From NCBI GenBank assembly GCA_001799575.1, contig MGTT01000028.1, forward strand, positions 79,274-143,273: 64,000 nucleotides of DNA, written 5' to 3'. A program made the translations under genes and the position numbers. This DNA comes from Elusimicrobia bacterium GWA2_56_46 (lineage in GTDB: Bacteria > Elusimicrobiota > Elusimicrobia > Elusimicrobiales > UBA9959). This document shows positions 1-57,908 of the stretch, piece by piece (position 1 is the stretch's first letter; the number at the start of each line of letters is the position of its first letter). Under the pieces are notes generated by a model. That model was not told the DNA's origin and did not search any database. It saw nothing but the letters and a program-made list of their open reading frames with translations.

Positions 1-1694
1 TTGACGCGCCGCTTACGGCGGAGATCTCCCTGGAGGAAGCTCTGGCGCGCGGAAAAAAAGACGGTTTTATCTGCCTGGCCCACTCCTCGGGCGCCGTCTG
101 CGCCGGTTCGGAACTGGGCGCGGCATATTTCGCCCCTGGGGAACTTAAAGGCGAAGACAAAGCCGGCCTTTCGGTGCTGGTGCAGGATGTCCGGATCTTC
201 AAGGTCGCGGCCGGCCTGAAAAGCGTTCTGCATCTCATCGATTTCGAGCCGGTCCGCGAAATGAACAATTTTTTCGAACTTGAGATCGCTCACTCGCTCC
301 TGAGCGCGCGCAAGAGCGATCTCTCCAGGCTGGTCTTTGAGAAGACCGGCGCCCTTCCGCGTGAAGAAGGTTCCAGGGAAGAGCTCCTCACCGCCGCCGG
401 GGCTATGCCTCGCCTCTACCCGGAGATAAAGAAAGAACTGGCGGCGGCCGGGATGGAAAAGGTCTATTCCGAACTGGAACTGCCGCTGATCCCCGCGATC
501 TACGCCATGGAGCGCGCCGGTTTTAAAGTGGATCTCGGCGTGCTTAAAGAGCTTTCCGCCGATTTTTCGGCCAAGCTGGCCGCCATAGAGGCGGAAGCGG
601 AGCGGCTGACCGGGCATAAGGTGAATCTCAATTCTCCCAAGCAGCTGGGCTGGCTTTTATACGAGAAATTGAATATCCAGCTGGACGACGCCCAGAAAAA
701 GATGTTTAAGACCAAGGACGGCTACTCGACCGCCGAGGAGGTGCTGACTTTCCTGAAACCGGCCCATCCAGTGATAGAAAAACTCCTGGAATTCCGCGAG
801 ATCTCGAAACTGAAGTCATCTTTCGTGGACAACCTCCTGGCCGCGGCCGACGGGGAGGGCAGGGTTCACAGCACCTTTGAACAGGCCGGCACGGCCACCG
901 GCAGGTTCTCAAGTTCGAAGCCCAATCTCCAGAATATCCCGGCGCGTTCGGCCTACGGTCAGCTGGTGCGCCGCGCTTTTTGCGCCCGCCGCGGGTTCTC
1001 TCTTATGAGCGCCGACTATTCGCAGATAGACCTGCGGGTGCTTGCCCATGTTTCAGGAGATAAAAATCTGGTTTCGGCGTTCCGCTCAAACGAAGACATA
1101 CACCTGCGCACGGCCTCTGAAGTTTTCCACGCCGCTCCGGAACTGGTCACCAGGGAAATGAGGCGCTCCGCCAAGGCTATCAATTTCGGCATCGTCTACG
1201 GCCAGACCGCCCAGGGGCTTGCCCGTGAACTGGGGATTCCCAGGCCGGAGGCGGCCAAATACATAAAGCACTATTTCGAGGTTTACTCCGGGGTTAAATC
1301 CTGGATAGACGGGACTATAGATGCCGCGAAAAAGAACGGCTGCGTGACGACTTTTACCGGCAGGCGACGGGGCGTGCCGGAGATCAACGGAGCTAACGGG
1401 AACCTGCGGGCTTTCGCGGAGCGCGTGGCTGTGAATACGCCTATACAGGGCGGTTCGGCCGATATCATAAAGAAAGCCATGATAGACATCCACGCGAAGA
1501 TAAAGGGTTCCGATAAGATCGTCCTGGTTCTGCAGGTGCACGACGAGCTGGTTTTTGAAGTAAAAGCCGGCCACGAAGCCGAAGCCGCGCGTCTGATCAG
1601 GGACGGCATGGAGAACGCTTTCAAGCTGGAAGTGCCCCTGCGCGCAGACATCAAAGCCGGCCCCAACTGGCAGGATATGGAGCCTGTTCTTTGA
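1..1694 (+). CDS. polA: DNA polymerase I, C-terminal polymerase domain. The reading frame is open from the window start (phase 3) with no stop before 1694, so the gene begins upstream of the window.
   Basis: The translation contains family-A polymerase motifs such as QIDLRVLAHVSGD, NTPIQGGSADIIK and LQVHDELVFEV. The frame is continuous from position 3. Confidence 0.93.
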   Translation, partial: DAPLTAEISLEEALARGKKDGFICLAHSSGAVCAGSELGAAYFAPGELKGEDKAGLSVLVQDVRIFKVAAGLKSVLHLIDFEPVREMNNFFELEIAHSLLSARKSDLSRLVFEKTGALPREEGSREELLTAAGAMPRLYPEIKKELAAAGMEKVYSELELPLIPAIYAMERAGFKVDLGVLKELSADFSAKLAAIEAEAERLTGHKVNLNSPKQLGWLLYEKLNIQLDDAQKKMFKTKDGYSTAEEVLTFLKPAHPVIEKLLEFREISKLKSSFVDNLLAAADGEGRVHSTFEQAGTATGRFSSSKPNLQNIPARSAYGQLVRRAFCARRGFSLMSADYSQIDLRVLAHVSGDKNLVSAFRSNEDIHLRTASEVFHAAPELVTREMRRSAKAINFGIVYGQTAQGLARELGIPRPEAAKYIKHYFEVYSGVKSWIDGTIDAAKKNGCVTTFTGRRRGVPEINGANGNLRAFAERVAVNTPIQGGSADIIKKAMIDIHAKIKGSDKIVLVLQVHDELVFEVKAGHEAEAARLIRDGMENAFKLEVPLRADIKAGPNWQDMEPVL

Positions 1695-1794
1695 ACAGGT
1701 TCCTGCCACAAACCGAATATGGAATTAATACAGATGCTTATGGAAGCGGCGCACGATAGAGCGGGGTCCTGCCGGGGGGCAACCTTTTCGCGTT
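1689..1794. repeat. Left copy of a ~105 bp direct repeat. It begins inside the polA stop codon and ends partway into the first arm of a palindromic element.
   Basis: Positions 1689-1794 (tttgaacaggtt ... atggaattaatacagatgcttatggaagcggcgcacgatagagcggggtcctgccggggg) are near-identical to 3527-3632. Confidence 0.8.
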
Positions 1795-1943
1795 TTTATA
1801 TAATATAAATATGGGTTCCAAATTAACTAAATATTCTTGCAGCCTTAACCAGGAGGAACTTGACTGGCTTCGTCTTTCTCCCGCAAAACGGATGATTGAG
1901 TCCGCGAAGCTGTGGAAGTTTTACCTGGCGATAGGAGGAAAAC

Positions 1944-2693
1944 TTGACTCTCAGCCCGATCCTCAAGGTCCTTTCAACTTTCCGAAAGCAAAAAGTTAAA
2001 TCCCTGCTTATAGGCGGGCAGGCATGTATCGTATACGGAGCCGCGGAATTCAGCCGTGATTCCGACTTTGTCGTGCTGGCTTCCCCGTCAAATCTTAAAG
2101 CGTTGGCCGGCGCATTAAAAGTGTTAAAAGCCGTTCCGGTATACTATCCCGAATTGACGATCCATTATCTGCTTAAGGGCCATGCCTGCCATTTTCGCTG
2201 TGGAGCGAGCGGGGTGGAGGGTTTGCGGGTTGATATTATGTCGAAACTGAAGGGTTGCGACGCCTTTGGGAAACTTTGGGCCCGGCGTAACCGCGTGAAA
2301 ATTTCAGGATTGGGCGCGGTAGATATAATTTCGCTTGCAGATCTTGTTCAAAGCAAAAAAACCCAGCGTGACAAGGACTGGTTTATGTTAAACCGTCTTG
2401 TGGAAAATGACATTTTTATAAATGAGGGCTCCGGTTCCGCCGCCAAAGTTAACTGGTGGCTTGCCCAATGCCGGGCGCCGGAAACGCTTGCGCGGCTTTG
2501 TTCTGATCATCCGGGACAGGCCCGCGGAGGTATCACGCGCAGGCCGCTTTTACGCGAAGCTGTGAAAAATAATTTAAAAAAGCTGTCTGAGCTGCTTAAA
2601 AAAGAAGAGGCTGCGGAAAGGGCAAAAGATTTAAGCTACTGGCTGCCATTAAAAAAAGAACTGGAAAAGCTCCGTCTGTCCCGTGAGCGATAA
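1944..2693 (+). CDS. Nucleotidyltransferase-fold protein, AbiEii/DUF1814-like (a putative type IV TA/Abi toxin). The assignment is by motif only.
   Basis: The N-terminus carries LIGGQACIVYGAAEFSRDSDFVV, which matches the hGG...(R)FSxDhDh nucleotidyltransferase signature of the AbiEii family. The ORF is 249 aa and is flanked by AT-rich DNA. Confidence 0.5.
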   Translation: MTLSPILKVLSTFRKQKVKSLLIGGQACIVYGAAEFSRDSDFVVLASPSNLKALAGALKVLKAVPVYYPELTIHYLLKGHACHFRCGASGVEGLRVDIMSKLKGCDAFGKLWARRNRVKISGLGAVDIISLADLVQSKKTQRDKDWFMLNRLVENDIFINEGSGSAAKVNWWLAQCRAPETLARLCSDHPGQARGGITRRPLLREAVKNNLKKLSELLKKEEAAERAKDLSYWLPLKKELEKLRLSRER

Positions 2694-2905
2694 GCGTTGG
2701 TGTGATCGGGTCAACGAAGCTCATATAGAGTAAAAAAGGTAGACGCTGCCTTTTCCTTAAAGCCGGCCACAAGTCGAGCGGTATTGAATTTTAACCCTTG
2801 ACGGCGCACTATATTTTGTATATACTATATGTAGCACAATAATGTAGTGCACGGATGTTTGCCGGCCATAGGCCGGATACGGCGCCGGTATGGACTGGGA
2901 GTCTC

Positions 2906-3175
2906 ATGAAAATCTCCGATTTTGAGTGGGATAGGGCCAACGAAGCTCATATTGCCAGGCACAATGTTACTCCGGCTGAGGCGGAAGAAGTTTTTCTTTC
3001 GGAATATTTTCTCCGTAAAACTCATTCAGGGCGTTACGGTCTCTATGGCCGGAGTTTTCATGGCCGCTGTTTATTTATCGTTTTCGAAAAACTTAAAGGT
3101 AATGTTGCCAGGATAATCACAGCCAGGGATATGGCGGACAAAGAGAAAATATTTTATCGGAGGGTGAAAAGATGA
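2906..3175 (+). CDS. brnT: BrnT-family toxin (DUF497 ribonuclease toxin).
   Basis: The start motif MKISDFEWDRANEAHIARHNVTPAEAEEVF is typical of BrnT/DUF497. The stop overlaps the downstream start as ATGA. Confidence 0.75.
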   Translation: MKISDFEWDRANEAHIARHNVTPAEAEEVFLSEYFLRKTHSGRYGLYGRSFHGRCLFIVFEKLKGNVARIITARDMADKEKIFYRRVKR

Positions 3176-3486
3176 AAAACCGCAAACTGCCGCATTTTAA
3201 AACAAGGGAAGAAGAGGCCGAATTCTGGGATACTCATTCCATGGCGGATTATCTGGGCGAGTTGGAATGTGCGGATGAGGTTTTTACCCTCGCGCCGTCT
3301 TTGGCGGAGAAAATCAAGGAGAGGGCAAAGACAAAGGCTGTTTCGCTAAGGCTTCCTCAATGGGAAATCGACGGGGCCAAAAGAGTCGCCAAAAAAGAGG
3401 GCGTAGGCTATCAGGTTTTAATCAATACCTGGATCGCCGAAGCTTTGAGACGTGAAGCGCACCGCACCCGCAGGGCCGGTACATAG
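3172..3486 (+). CDS. brnA: BrnA-family antitoxin (CopG/RHH-like).
   Basis: The gene is translationally coupled (ATGA) to the upstream brnT. Its size of 104 aa and its context fit BrnA, and the C-terminus is an RHH-like basic region. Confidence 0.65.
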   Translation: MKNRKLPHFKTREEEAEFWDTHSMADYLGELECADEVFTLAPSLAEKIKERAKTKAVSLRLPQWEIDGAKRVAKKEGVGYQVLINTWIAEALRREAHRTRRAGT

Positions 3487-3526
3487 CGATTAATGAATGG
3501 GAAAGGTAGTTGCTGCCTTTTTTATT

Positions 3527-3680
3527 TGAACAGGTTTAAGTCACAAGTCGAACATGGAATTGATACAGATACTTATGGAAGCGGCGCACGATAGAGCGGG
3601 GTCCTGCCGGGGGATAACCTTTTCGCGTTCCCTCGGCCGCCTGCGGGGTCGAAAAGGTTACGCCCCCGTCACCCCTTCCC
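3527..3680. repeat. Right copy of the ~105 bp direct repeat, followed by a complete palindromic hairpin element.
   Basis: Positions 3527-3632 match 1689-1794. The palindrome ggggataaccttttcg...cgaaaaggttacgcccc closes the element. Confidence 0.8.
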
Positions 3681-3888
3681 TGTTCCCTTATCCTGAGATC
3701 CTTAAAAAATATAATTGTTACCATCCAAATTATCTCTTAAATTATCCGCCCTTTAATAGTCGAGGAATGGGGGGGACGTAGCTCGGTTTCTTGATTATTT
3801 TTAATATGCTTGGATTCGCAATTATGCGCCCAGTAAAAATAGTTAGTCAACTAGTCAACAACGTCCCCGTACCCTCGGGAAGATATAA

Positions 3889-4085
3889 AATGGAGGGGGC
3901 GGCGGCGGGTTTTCTGCGCGCTCCATTTGAGGGTTTAAAACCGGAGTCTGGAGCAGTATCCCTCCGGGACGGCGAGGATGTTTGAGGGCAAAAGCTTTGT
4001 CTTTTGCCCGAGTTCCGGAGCCGGCGGAGGACTCCGGTTTTCTTCCCCGGAAACCCGAACCCGGAGCGCGCGGGAAACCCGGCGA
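3889..4085. ncRNA. Structured RNA, copy 1. It is a rod-like hairpin of ~180-195 nt with a long closing stem. The family is unassigned (6S-like is the working hypothesis) and the strand is undetermined.
   Basis: The closing helix pairs cgggttttctgcgcgctcc with ggagcgcgcgggaaacccg. An inner helix pairs ccggagtc with gactccgg, and there is a central hairpin gggcaaaag...cttttgccc. A second copy at 54805-55005 preserves these helices through compensatory changes. Confidence 0.55.
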
Positions 4086-4135
4086 CGACCCCGGACAGTG
4101 CAATCGTCTTTAACAGCGGGCATCGTATTGAGGAT

Positions 4136-4159
4136 CATTTTGCTGACGTCAGCAAAATG
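4136..4159. promoter_or_regulatory. 24 bp perfect palindrome, CATTTTGCTGACGTCAGCAAAATG, a candidate operator upstream of the rhomboid gene.
   Basis: The sequence is an exact inverted repeat centred on GACGTC. It lies ~100 bp upstream of the ATG at 4257 and ~70 bp upstream of an AT-rich -10-like stretch (tatataat). Confidence 0.35.
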
Positions 4160-4256
4160 GTGGATATTGGGAGTGGTGCGGAGCGATCCATTAAACCTCT
4201 GGCAGCTTAAACCGATTTGTGAGCATATATAATATAAAAAGATCGGATGGGCGGAG

Positions 4257-5060
4257 ATGACGCTGTCATTGCGCCCGCCCTCTTTGAATGACCTGCCGCC
4301 TGTGGCTCGGGGGGTGGTGGTGGCGTGTTTCTGCGGATGGGTGCTGGAACTGGCGTTCGGGGGGGCGCTGAACCATTATTTTGGCCTCGTGCCGGCTAAA
4401 GTTATCGGCTCCGGCTGGCTCTGGCAGCCTCTTACTTACATATTCATACACGCCGGTTTCTGGCACTTCCTCTTTAACGCCTTCATGATCTGGATGCTGG
4501 GCCCGGTAATAGAATCGGCCCTGGGTTCCAGGAAGTTCTTTGTTTATTTCCTGTTCTGCGGCGCGGCGGCGGGACTTTTTACGGTAGCCGTAAGTCCCGC
4601 CTCTCTCCGGCCCGTAATAGGCGCTTCCGGCGCCGTCTACGGGCTTATGTACGCTTTCGCCGCGCTTTATCCGGAGCAGATCGTATATATGTATTTCCTT
4701 TTCCCCATGACCGCGCGCCAACTGGTCGTCTTCCTGGCCGGTCTTTCGCTGATCCTCAGTTTCACCACCCCCAATTCCAGCGTGGCCAACTTCACCCATT
4801 TAAGCGGCCTCGCCGCTGGCTGGTTGTATTTCCACACCGCGGTGTGGCTGGAAAATAGCGCGGCAGGAAGAGTAGTGGCTAGAGGACTCGAGGGCTGGAG
4901 GACTCGCAGCGAGTCACGAGTCACGAGTCACGAAATACAAAACTCCAGAAGGGTTGACGCTATTCTCGAAAAAATTTCCAGTCAAGGCGAAGCCGCCCTT
5001 ACCTCCGCCGAGCGCCGCGAACTGGACGAATACGCCAAAACGCGCGGCGGCCGCGCGTAA
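4257..5060 (+). CDS. Rhomboid-family intramembrane serine protease.
   Basis: The protein has multiple TM helices, the rhomboid motif GASGAVYGL and a conserved His in a later TM. The C-terminal tail contains a (GAGTCAC)x3 repeat. Confidence 0.8.
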   Translation: MTLSLRPPSLNDLPPVARGVVVACFCGWVLELAFGGALNHYFGLVPAKVIGSGWLWQPLTYIFIHAGFWHFLFNAFMIWMLGPVIESALGSRKFFVYFLFCGAAAGLFTVAVSPASLRPVIGASGAVYGLMYAFAALYPEQIVYMYFLFPMTARQLVVFLAGLSLILSFTTPNSSVANFTHLSGLAAGWLYFHTAVWLENSAAGRVVARGLEGWRTRSESRVTSHEIQNSRRVDAILEKISSQGEAALTSAERRELDEYAKTRGGRA

Positions 5061-5201
5061 CAGGGCGGGTAATTACGCCGTACCATGATTGGGTGGGATT
5101 AAGATGCTATATTTTAAGGGAGCGCCGGGGATTTGATCTTAACCGGCATCCATTGCGTAAGTTTAATGGAGGGCCGCCGGCGGGTATAGTTGGAGGGGTG
5201 G

Positions 5202-5259
5202 CGGGACCATGCCTTTTCGTCCCGCAGGTTGCCGAGGGAAGCGGAAAGGCATGGTCCCG
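5202..5259. repeat. Palindromic hairpin element of the same family as 3590-3680 and 54528-54610, in inverted orientation.
   Basis: cgggaccatgccttttcg ... cggaaaggcatggtcccg forms a ~17 bp stem. The loop is approximately the reverse complement of the loop in the other copies. Confidence 0.6.
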
Positions 5260-5370
5260 ACAGGACCCCGAACTCGCAGCCGCCTGTGTCCCGACTGGGC
5301 ATCTCGCGGCTTTAAACCCAAAGTCAACTATCCCGGCGTTACATTGCGGTGAAAAGGTGAACGGGAATTT

Positions 5371-10869: not shown

Positions 10870-10945
10870 CTGTCATTCCGGCAATCTGGCCGGGATCCAT
10901 TGAGAAAAACTTATGGATTCCCGCCAACAGCTGCGGGAATGACAG
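10870..10945. mobile_element. MITE-like miniature inverted-repeat element, copy 1. The termini are CTGTCATTCC / GGAATGACAG.
   Basis: ctgtcattccggcaatctggccgggatccattgagaaaaacttatggattcccgccaacagctgcgggaatgacag. The reverse complement aligns with 42405-42531. Confidence 0.7.
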
Positions 10946-42404: not shown

Positions 42405-42531
42405 TGTCATTCCCGCAGGCTGTTAGCGGGAATCCATAAATCTTTACTCAATGGATCCCGGCCAACAATACCTGCGTAGGTGCCGTTTCAGGGGCTATGC
42501 CCCTCAGACGGCCAGATCGCCGGGATGACAG
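42405..42531. mobile_element. MITE-like element, copy 2 (127 bp, with an internal ~45 bp insertion relative to copy 1). It lies between the convergent GH57 and rluD genes.
   Basis: tgtcattcccgcaggctgttagcgggaatccataaatctttactcaatggatcccggcc...gccgggatgacag has the same termini as the element at 10870-10945. Confidence 0.7.
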
Positions 42532-54432: not shown

Positions 54433-54527
54433 ACCTATATGATAGCAACAGAAAGCTAAAGAAAGCAACGGAACGCCAATCGAAGTAATGTAACGCCGAG
54501 CCAGTGGATTTTGGGTGAAGCTCCGCA

Positions 54528-54610
54528 GGATAGTAAAGCGGGGGCCTGCCGGGGTGAGGCCTTTTCGCGTTCCGTCGGCGGCCTGCCGGGTCGAAAAGGC
54601 CTCACCCCGG
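54528..54610. repeat. Palindromic hairpin element of the same family as 3590-3680.
   Basis: ggggtgaggccttttcgcgttccgtcggcggcctgccgggtcgaaaaggcctcacccc is a perfect 17 bp stem. It is preceded by a gatagtaaagcgggggcctgccgggg leader similar to the one at 3590. Confidence 0.75.
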
Positions 54611-54804
54611 CACCCCGCATAAGGCTTACGCGCTTGATGGTCGCTCGACTAAATTTCCCGGCGCTCGCCTCAACCCCAAGCCACTTATAAAACAAAGCCG
54701 CCGGTTTCCCGGCAATGGTGGTAAATGCACTGTATCTTAAAAAGGGCGGGATAATGATGTTGTGTTTTAGGTCGTAACGTGAGGAACTACAATACGCGTA
54801 AGTT

Positions 54805-55005
54805 TTAGGGAGGGGCGGCGCCGGGTTTTCTGTGCGCTCCATTCGGAGGGTTTTAAGACCGGGGTCTGGAGCGTATCCCTCCGGGACGGCGGTGAATGTT
54901 TGAGGCAAAAAACTTTGCTTTTTTGCCGAGTTCGCACGCCGACGGAAGACCCCGGTCTTCTTCTCCATAAAACCCGAACCCGGAGCGCGCGGGAAACCCG
55001 GCGCC
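54805..55005. ncRNA. Structured RNA, copy 2. It is paralogous to 3889-4085, and its helices are maintained by compensatory substitutions.
   Basis: The closing helix pairs ccgggttttctgtgcgctcc with ggagcgcgcgggaaacccgg. The inner helix pairs ccggggtc with gaccccgg, compared with ccggagtc/gactccgg in copy 1. The central hairpin is ggcaaaaaac...ttttttgcc. Confidence 0.55.
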
Positions 55006-55417
55006 GCCCCGACTCCGCTATCCTGCGGTTCGTAACTCAAAGTCAATCAGCCATGCGCAAGTTTACGAACATCCGGAGCGGCCGCAGTCGTGGCAGGTGG
55101 GGCCGGAACAGCCGGGATTCATAACTTGCATGGGAGGACTCCCAGGCGATGCCGACGCTGGCCGGTGATACGTGATGTTTTGCCGAGCCGCGAAATTAAA
55201 CTATAATCTGGAGATGTCAATGAGGACAGGTGTGGCGATGATTTTAACCGCTAATATACCTTTAGGCAATATTTATGCAACACGGAAATACTAAAGTCAG
55301 TCTGGAGGCGCGGCAATCTGGAAGCGGGGCAATTTATAGCCTTACATCCCGAACCTGAACCGCTTTACGCCTTTGCCTCTAAGCGGTTTTGCATCTATAT
55401 AACGGAGCGAATAAAAT

Positions 55418-57844: not shown

Positions 57845-57862
57845 GGTAAATTTGGCTGAAAA

Positions 57863-57908
57863 CAAAAATTCCCCGTCCGCTTTAAGCGGACGGGGAATTT
57901 TATTTTTA
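57863..57908. terminator. Bidirectional rho-independent terminator between the convergent coiled-coil and pilin genes.
   Basis: ccccgtccgc-tttaa-gcggacgggg is flanked by A-run and T-run tracts on both strands. Confidence 0.7.

Follow-up and report, generated by a model that had tools for sequence, protein, structure and literature searches.

What are the four similar hairpins that lie scattered over a 64,000-nucleotide (nt) stretch of the genome of Elusimicrobia bacterium GWA2_56_46 (hereafter, the window)? A preliminary description of these hairpins, here named c1 to c4, had left open whether they are REP/BIME-like repeats, transcription-terminator modules or small-RNA genes. We find that the hairpin is the core of a mosaic unit of 150-300 nt, that such units occupy many non-orthologous intergenic sites, that their structure is kept by compensatory changes, and that their occupancy turns over between related genomes. 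The hairpins are probably the cores of small non-coding, modular interspersed repeats of an Elusimicrobiota clade that are non-autonomous and hairpin-dependent. In kind, they are of the same general sort as ERIC, BOX and REP/REPIN, rather than a new type of RNA gene or terminator.

All four copies are present, roughly at the positions originally given, as three full hairpins of 75-78 nt (c2, c3 and c4) with fold energies of -44 to -65 kcal/mol and one 5′ half, c1, which breaks off after CGCGTT in the apical region, its last letters at position 1794 being ...CCTTTTCGCGTT. They form a true repeat family, with matches far above chance. Specifically, the pattern CCTTTTCG-N15-40-CGAAAAGG has two exact matches in the window against 0.00 expected by chance, and the exact window matches of the basal 15-mer CGGGGNCCTGYCGGG are the four copies only. 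A covariance model built from 58 copies and run over all 64 kb scores c2, c3 and c4 at 83-101 bits on the strands given in Table 1 and at 32-47 bits on the opposite strands, and its best other match in the window reaches 13.6 bits. Several details of the initial account need amending. The common inner core holds for c2 and c4, but c3 has CCTTTCCG in place of CCTTTTCG on one arm, giving one C.A mismatch; likewise, the outer stems are perfectly complementary in c3 and c4, but the variable stem of c2 contains 1-nt and 2-nt bulges. The sequence GGGGNCCTGCCGGGG, taken for a leader shared by two copies, is actually the basal stem, which pairs with CCCCGNCACCCC over an asymmetric bulge. The possibility that the copies are merely parts of one larger duplicated segment applies to c1 and c2 only, whose common 5′ flank comes from a local 108-bp direct duplication (1687-1794 and 3522-3629, 89% identity). 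Both c2 and c4 are followed about 200 nt downstream by a copy of a second repeat, and these two pairs do not constitute one segmental duplication, because the intervening sequences differ.

The hairpin is built in layers. From the base upward, a GGGG/CCCC clamp with an asymmetric 3-nt bulge is followed by a middle stem that varies yet stays complementary, then by an invariant CCUUU(U/C)(C/U)G / C(G/A)AAAAGG stem, and at the top by a small, conserved stem-loop. Neither arm (GGGGNCCTGCCGNNNNNNNGCCTTTTCG or its partner) is self-complementary; the fold is a single continuous stem, and the arms are separated by 24 nt at the apex. Compensatory change was assessed in 58 distinct short cores from Elusimicrobia metagenome-assembled genomes (MAGs) and metagenomes, with a structure specified by us and 500 column shuffles as control. 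Standard pairs occupy 93.3% of the cells, compared with 82.1% in the shuffles, none of which (0/500) is as high. Two-sided changes occur in 11 of the 31 base pairs and amount to 195 cells against 65 expected, again unmatched by any of the 500 shuffles, and pairing falls to 36-60% when the 3′ partners are slid by 1-3 columns. The middle stem appears in 42 distinct combinations in 62 copies, and one apical pair varies between C-G, G-C and A-U (17, 13 and 10 copies). The original argument that co-variation reflects a hairpin that is kept therefore holds, and much more strongly with 58 copies than within the window.

The family extends well beyond this genome, contrary to the possibility that the motif might be absent elsewhere, and occurs at many loci in other Elusimicrobia genomes and in metagenomes. 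A strict pattern scan of one genome per species over 185,579 species returned 31 matches, among which the hairpin is found only in those from Elusimicrobia/Elusimicrobiota MAGs; the species of the window itself is not among these matches. With a metagenome scan of at least 115 stretches and an nhmmer cutoff of E <= 1e-5, at least 95 matches were obtained in at least 70 loci, some of them being reverse-strand or split matches of one copy, and at least 67 distinct full hairpins were extracted, including the 58 short cores. Several contigs hold 2-3 copies within a few kb. The neighbouring genes, identified by tblastn, vary between genomes and include gdhA, agmatinase, rsmE, polA and tmk. Because the neighbours differ, the conserved flanks belong to the element itself, and the idea that similar MAG flanks reflect a syntenic, orthologous conserved RNA is ruled out. 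Viral contigs that were searched gave zero matches. In Rfam 15, the gathering scan of the window passes two tRNAs only and offers no family for the hairpins, and E-value scans of both hairpin regions (to E <= 10) yield only chance miRNA-like hairpin matches far under threshold. An alpha-tmRNA candidate was likewise discarded, as its 12.9 bits dropped to 8.3 bits on extending the region and ARAGORN found no tmRNA. A full-text literature search found no paper naming both Elusimicrobia and repetitive extragenic palindromic sequences. This is a previously undescribed repeat family, restricted to the Elusimicrobia clade.

Alignment of many copies defines three flank types around the core, each of which recurs over genomes at different loci. 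B-type units, such as c4, read GTAACGCCGGG...GGCTTTGGG...CCGCAGGATAGNAAAGC before the core and GCGTAAAACTTACGC...CCCGGCG after it. A-type units, represented by c3, have additional 23-nt modules GGGATGGCAGCGGCTGCCAGKTC, one to three in tandem, before the core and TCCAACNATACCCGCC after it, whereas C-type units (c1 and c2) have ATGGAATT..CTTATGGAAGYGGCGCANGATAGAGC on the 5′ side and TTCCCTGTTCCCTTA.CCTGA.ATCCTTAAAAAATATAAT on the 3′ side. Only the B type carries AACGCCGGG...CCCGGCGTT near its ends, with conservation running past it on the 3′ side; A- and C-type units are without it. Immediately before GGGG, the 5′ flanks end in ...GATAGNAAAGC, ...CAGTTC or ...GATAGAGC, and the 3′ flanks continue from CACCCC into TCCAAC, GCGTAA or TTCCCT, without a T-run. 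Within the window, the c2 hairpin is flanked by ATGGAATT..CTTATGGAAGCGGCGCACGATAGAGC and TTCCCTGTTCCCTTATCCTGAGATCCTTAAAAAATATAAT, and the c4 unit, which lies in the spacer between the divergent tmk and coiled-coil genes, is closed by the stem AACGCCG.G/CCCGGCG. The c3 unit is a composite that occupies the whole rhomboid-coaE spacer, running in order through a B-type shell (GTAACGCCGGG...), an A-type module (GGGACACAGGCGGCTGCGAGTTC), the hairpin, TCCAACTATACCCGCC, the 3′ part of the shell and two CCCRCCC boxes.

This composition is BOX-like, with constant 5′ and 3′ shells, the 23-nt module present 0-3 times, an optional 43-nt module, and cores of 75-200 nt. The 43-nt module, GRRCCCAGTGTCCGTAGCAAAACTTAACNNCAGYGTAGTCCAC, is conserved and non-palindromic and occupies one constant position within the apical region in six loci (L018, L069, L073, L079, L081 and L142); it also appears in a 3′ half in L112 and stands free outside hairpins in L047 and L128. 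A 55-nt hairpin is inserted at nearly the same loop position in L093, and one L047 copy carries a palindromic module, GCCCCGCACTTT...AAAGTGCGGGGC, within its bulge. The tail of many units (5063-5097 in c3) comprises a TATAAT-like box, CCCRCCC, 21-26 nt, a second CCCRCCC and then GGTGGTAAACAGATATCC. The second CCCRCCC box forms the loop of a further small hairpin, after which an intrinsic terminator follows in some loci, and the tail might be a module in its own right or else a small transcription unit. Two smaller observations concern the surroundings of the units. A small palindromic module, GCCCCGCACTTTGG...CCAAAGTGCGGGGC, lies beside or nested in hairpin units (L047 9790-10110 and the tails of L055, L109, L142, L144 and L128). 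Additionally, the motif TTATTTTTCAGCAGAAAAATGTGCCTGGCTCCTTTGC is found 5′ of B-type units in different contigs (L137, L099, L146 and L065) and appears to be another mosaic component.

Related genomes differ in which sites are occupied and by what. The rhomboid-coaE spacer that holds c3 in the window contains another palindrome in L157 and, in L158, tandem repeats, and it has no unit in L159, where the two genes overlap, or in L160, where the spacer measures 69 nt. In four relatives, the orthologous polA-rhomboid-coaE loci contain no canonical copy by nhmmer and covariance-model search, only related long-core variants. Downstream of gdhA in two genomes whose GdhA proteins are 92.6% identical, the same canonical U-tract terminator is conserved and is directly followed by family members that differ, one genome having a 77-nt C-type unit and the other an A-type composite of about 500 nt, beyond which the sequences re-align. 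Other sites persist. In particular, a copy downstream of hrcA-grpE-dnaK-dnaJ-rsmE is found in four species whose RsmE proteins are 74-93% identical, its middle stem differing from species to species, and the two closest species differ in the presence of a 22-nt module within it.

Table 1. Hairpin units of the family and associated features in the window
Feature	Position	Strand	Description
c1, truncated unit	1719-1794	+	C-type 5′ flank and hairpin 5′ arm only; nhmmer alignment ends at model position 74
c2, full C-type unit	3554-3715	+	Hairpin 3598-3675; covariance model 87.3 bits
c3, composite unit	5063-5342	-	Hairpin 5195-5269; covariance model 82.6 bits
c3 CCCRCCC boxes	5091-5097 and 5063-5069		
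c4, B-type unit	54490-54669	+	Hairpin 54540-54616; covariance model 100.9 bits
Block 2A, imperfect rod-like 200-nt hairpin	3896-4091	-	-101.4 kcal/mol, z -4.9; convergent with c2
Block 2B unit	54735-55080	-	Hairpin 54812-55010, -119.7 kcal/mol, z -7.6; convergent with c4
Left copy of 108-bp direct duplication	1687-1794	+	polA stop region to hairpin apex; flanks cassette
Inserted cassette	1795-3521	+	249-aa open reading frame, BrnT toxin (PF04365), CopG/BrnA-type antitoxin (PF12441)

The placement of the units relative to genes bears on what they do. On gene calls that are crude (longest open reading frames, ORFs), 19 copies lie between convergent genes, 7 between divergent genes and 26 between tandem genes, the last divided into 11 co-oriented and 15 anti-oriented copies. 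Where an upstream neighbour could be called, 37 of 61 copies stand shortly downstream of a co-oriented gene, mostly with 10-170 nt between gene end and unit start. The units thus keep away from promoter regions and are oriented without preference for either strand of transcription. Such positions would suit a cis-acting RNA element of mRNA 3′ ends, acting as a terminator that lacks a U-tract or as a 3′ exonuclease barrier that stabilises the transcript and being selected as such, whose repetition would then reflect recruitment rather than mobility. Besides the gene-end positions and the excess of convergent over divergent spacers, this proposal can draw on the very stable folds, the strong covariation, the orthologous persistence of the rsmE-downstream copy, and the reported effects of ERIC and REP on mRNA decay (PMC3184786). 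Against it, the tandem orientation is random, and c4 together with six other copies is flanked by divergent gene starts. No U-tract follows the hairpin at c2, c3 or c4, while this genome uses ordinary intrinsic terminators. Moreover, 8 of 63 copies already have a strict canonical terminator 20-170 nt upstream of their hairpin, compared with 8 of 315 control windows, gdhA being the clearest case. Both strands fold about equally, and an RNA element of this sort has no need of conserved flanks, nested modules or long-core variants. We therefore regard such an element as an unlikely basis for the family. The suggested terminator module fails on the same grounds, namely the missing U-tract, the ordinary terminators of this genome, the terminators already standing just upstream of units and the random orientation, and termination is unlikely to be the primary function; a secondary effect on transcript stability at 3′ ends is plausible. 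The terminator that exemplifies the ordinary kind is a canonical bidirectional one at window 57859-57907, with 24-nt arms flanked by an A-tract and a T-tract, in the spacer between the coiled-coil gene and a pilin-like gene.

The matching of the arms might also have arisen without any selection on a hairpin. Bacterial mutations are documented to arise through template switching that corrects quasipalindromes, and intra-strand switching during replication could copy one arm onto the other and leave the copies as inert relics. The elements are indeed long, near-perfect DNA palindromes, both of their strands fold equally well, and they show no strand bias relative to genes. What such copying should erase, however, is kept in dozens of copies: the 3-nt (CCU) bulge after GGGG, an apical stem with its U/C opposition and G.U pair, and the recurrent GAC/ATC, a C.A mismatch that persists while adjacent pairs vary (TAG/CTA, CAG/CTG, TAC/GTA and GAC/GTC). 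In addition, the unpaired apical and bulge nucleotides rank among the most conserved positions. Retention of a bulge and a mismatch beside co-varying pairs points to a specific architecture rather than simple palindrome correction, and speaks for selection on one particular fold more than for mere homogenisation of a palindrome. Template switching may help to match the arms but leaves the conserved imperfections unexplained, and we judge a neutral origin of this kind quite improbable. The strand of action was also sought. An alignment-based count gives an excess of G.U over A.C in the plus orientation (109 vs 25), whereas the mean fold energy per copy is -46.3 kcal/mol for the plus and -48.6 kcal/mol for the minus strand, slightly favouring the minus strand; both strands fold well, and no strand was assigned.

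The locus after polA raises the further question whether the hairpin serves as a recombination site. As had been noted at the outset, a hairpin copy forms the boundary of a cassette inserted after polA, c1 being its left junction. The 1.7-kb cassette, whose 249-aa ORF has zero Pfam matches, is bounded by the repeat family and is not part of it. The half hairpin c1 is the chromosomal 5′ half, and the right duplicate (3522-3629) restores the complete hairpin c2. This order of half hairpin, cargo and full hairpin is the topology expected for a crossover in the apical region between a chromosomal unit and a circular molecule that carries a homologous 108-bp segment. The surrounding polA-rhomboid slot (window 1687-4256) is an insertion hot spot with varying cargo, holding none in L157, a Bro-N protein gene in L159, a thiamine pyrophosphate (TPP) enzyme gene between duplicated polA 3′ ends (2940-2990 and 4757-4807) in L158, and AAA_14/DUF4143, DUF6088 and CsgG genes in L160.

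From these features, the hairpin architecture could be imagined as the site of a trans-acting Elusimicrobia recombinase or transposase specific to single-stranded hairpins, with the apical loop as the integration point of cassettes such as the BrnT/BrnA one after polA, that is, as a dispersed attC-like or REPIN-like system with a new enzyme; we consider this very improbable. Like integron attC sites (Vibrio VCR), the hairpins are imperfect palindromes with extrahelical bases in which structure is kept above sequence, and one copy bounds a toxin-antitoxin cassette. Unlike attC sites, they are dispersed among housekeeping genes rather than arrayed, have a GGGG/CCCC base without the RYYYAAC/GTTRRRY core sites, and place the junction at the hairpin apex, not at its base, with no IntI gene seen and no integrase nearby. 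Integron attC was accordingly dropped as an identity, together with CRISPR, retron and omega-RNA, because the copies form no array, lack the core sites and have no associated genes. A related proposal treats the units as att-like sites, at whose apical loop cassettes and islands integrate through a site-specific recombinase, so that the family would mark hot spots. It would account for the attP x attB loop-crossover topology around the cassette, for the differing content of the slot in the four relatives, including the L158 cargo between duplicated polA ends, and for the 43-nt module (six loci and the L112 3′ half) and the L093 hairpin sharing nearly the same loop position. Nevertheless, the order of half hairpin, cargo and full hairpin is a single case (the window and the conspecific L096) against at least 67 distinct full copies, most of which are not adjacent to variable cargo. 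Neither in nor beside the cassette is there an integrase, the L158 duplication consists of polA coding sequence rather than hairpin, and arms 24 nt apart at the apex do not resemble the core site of a tyrosine recombinase, which leaves this proposal highly doubtful. The remaining suggestion, that the copies are paralogous small-RNA genes whose conserved flanks are promoter and 3′ end, could cite flank types conserved across genomes, TATAAT-like boxes in the 3′ tail and the strong covariation, but it is barely credible, and a small-RNA gene is unlikely in general, given the absence of Rfam matches even at E <= 10 and of a consistent promoter and terminator flanking the hairpin (the TATAAT box is placed downstream, not upstream, and no terminator follows), a mosaic and variable composition with cores of 75-200 nt, units nested in one another, and random orientation to genes without strand bias.

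Taken together, the mosaic modules and their nesting, the non-orthologous sites, the turnover, the avoidance of promoters, the absence of strand bias, the clade restriction and the conserved fold lead us to favour interspersed repeats. We propose that the units spread, now or formerly, as non-autonomous DNA elements, and that their propagation or retention may require a single-stranded hairpin, either as DNA or as RNA once transcribed, recognised by a trans-acting factor. Such recognition would explain why pairing, bulge and particular mismatches are retained together. The units would accumulate where they are least harmful, after gene 3′ ends and terminators, and might there take on a possible secondary role as 3′ RNA hairpins affecting transcript stability.

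Several observations weigh against an interspersed repeat of this kind. Among 739 ORFs scanned for motifs over about 1.1 Mb of repeat-containing loci, none had a RAYT or IS200 motif and only one was a Xer-like recombinase, and no full-length insertion sequence (IS) or other element bounded by the terminal repeats of the shell was found. No consistent direct repeat (target-site duplication) was seen at the unit boundaries and no exact insertion boundary could be defined, the comparisons including no clean empty/filled pair of very close strains. The persistence of the rsmE-downstream copy is equally compatible with a host function, the middle stems differ among all four window copies, so that this genome shows no trace of recent bursts, and the crudeness of the gene calls is a weakness of the orientation statistics.

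Comparison with characterised repeat systems places the family more closely. Of the three identities first proposed, REP/BIME-like is the best fit, since the units are mosaic, intergenic, interspersed and confined to one clade, but strict membership does not follow. The units share with REP, BIME and REPIN sequences of Proteobacteria the character of intergenic, high-GC palindromic mosaics with compensatory changes and a conserved stem bulge or mismatch. REP and REPIN sequences have a conserved tetranucleotide, usually GTAG, directly 5′ of the palindrome, and in Escherichia coli a bulge in the REP stem is required by TnpAREP (PMC8266576); REPINs form long hairpins in which compensatory changes are frequent in the less conserved part (PMC3116915). 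The Elusimicrobia hairpin, in contrast, has no conserved 5′ GTAG, its arms are not short palindromes and so make no REP doublet, and, unlike in RAYT-REPIN systems, where the repeats flank a single-copy RAYT/TnpAREP gene (REPtron), no RAYT/TnpAREP-like ORF was seen in the sampled loci. Loop insertions, present in the Elusimicrobia units, are a further point of likeness, since the insertion sequences IS1397 and ISKpn1 target REPs and insert into their loops.

With BOX of Streptococcus (boxA-(boxB)n-boxC), the units have in common that they are small non-coding modular repeats with a long stem-loop, located after gene 3′ ends or between convergent genes, and that an optional short module occurs in variable tandem number (here one to three 23-nt modules). 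BOX elements likewise consist of end modules and a variable number of internal modules, with strain-to-strain length variation (PMC3049150), and a convergent-rich, orientation-neutral distribution is reported for BOX, RUP, SPRITE and MITEs, the miniature inverted-repeat transposable elements, generally (PMC3049150; PMC3184786). Unlike BOX, the present family belongs to another phylum and has a single long GC-rich core hairpin whose middle stem co-varies; for its units no terminal inverted repeat or target duplication could be defined and a candidate IS partner was not found. The different phylum and the GC-rich composition make homology with BOX implausible. The units also resemble ERIC/IRU, the 127-bp imperfect palindrome of Enterobacteriaceae, in being 100-200 nt long and intergenic, often within transcribed regions, with some orthologous sites persisting and others gained or lost. 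The sequences are unrelated, however, and whereas ERIC-type MITEs end in terminal inverted repeats flanked by TA and by target duplications (PMC3184786), ends of this sort could not be defined for the Elusimicrobia units. The units do share several general features of MITEs, being shorter than about 400 bp, non-coding and multi-copy, with a long stem-loop and presence/absence polymorphism. As in the present family, longer variants of ERIC with internal insertions at fixed positions have reportedly been described. By comparison with intrinsic terminators, the hairpins have neither a T-run after them nor an orientation tied to the upstream gene.

The second repeat mentioned above, block 2, was found by comparing the window with itself. 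Its copies, 2A and 2B, are 84% identical and stand about 200 nt downstream of c2 and c4, respectively (Table 1). On the minus strand, block 2B sits in the same B-type shell, with a 5′ flank that aligns to the c4 and c3 shells, which makes it a candidate long-core variant of the same family. Block 2A, by its identity to 2B, is a candidate long-core relative, its own flanks showing little similarity to the shell. Compensatory changes between 2A and 2B are visible by eye, for example in the apical GGGCAAAAG/CUUUUGCCC stem, where G-C gives way to A-U. A block 2 copy also follows polA in L157. An apparent 95-nt indel between the window and L152 is not real: the conspecific assembly GCA_003489595.1 has an NN scaffold gap that falls precisely on the block 2 unit (L152 ~4438-4441, equivalent to window 54993-55087). 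From this one case, the repeats may break or collapse short-read MAG assemblies.

Interspersed repeats of this sort would be ordinary for the biology of the genome, a kind of feature that is well defined yet unremarkable, in a phylum that has received little study. To our knowledge, the characterisation of small interspersed palindromic repeats has been confined almost wholly to Proteobacteria, Firmicutes and cyanobacteria. The defined model (R1) and the parts list allow the elements, which create spurious ORFs, to be masked and annotated, and the model also lets a mobilising enzyme be sought; the elements are possible strain markers as well. The 42 variants of one stem with conserved imperfections provide a natural data set on selection for a hairpin versus palindrome correction.

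Two further palindromic sequences were noticed in the window. A perfect 24-bp palindrome, TTTTGCTGACGTCAGCAAAA, at 4136-4159, about 100 nt upstream of the rhomboid gene, is conserved in L159 (3933-3960), where the rhomboid protein is 71% identical, and may be a binding site of a dimeric regulator. Separately, a 60-nt repeat unrelated to the hairpin family occurs in inverted orientation at 10887-10944 and 42405-42464 with 92% identity, within a GTCATTCC..GGGAATGAC palindrome, and the L082 tail has a similar motif; the 60-nt repeat seems to represent a second family of interspersed repeats here.

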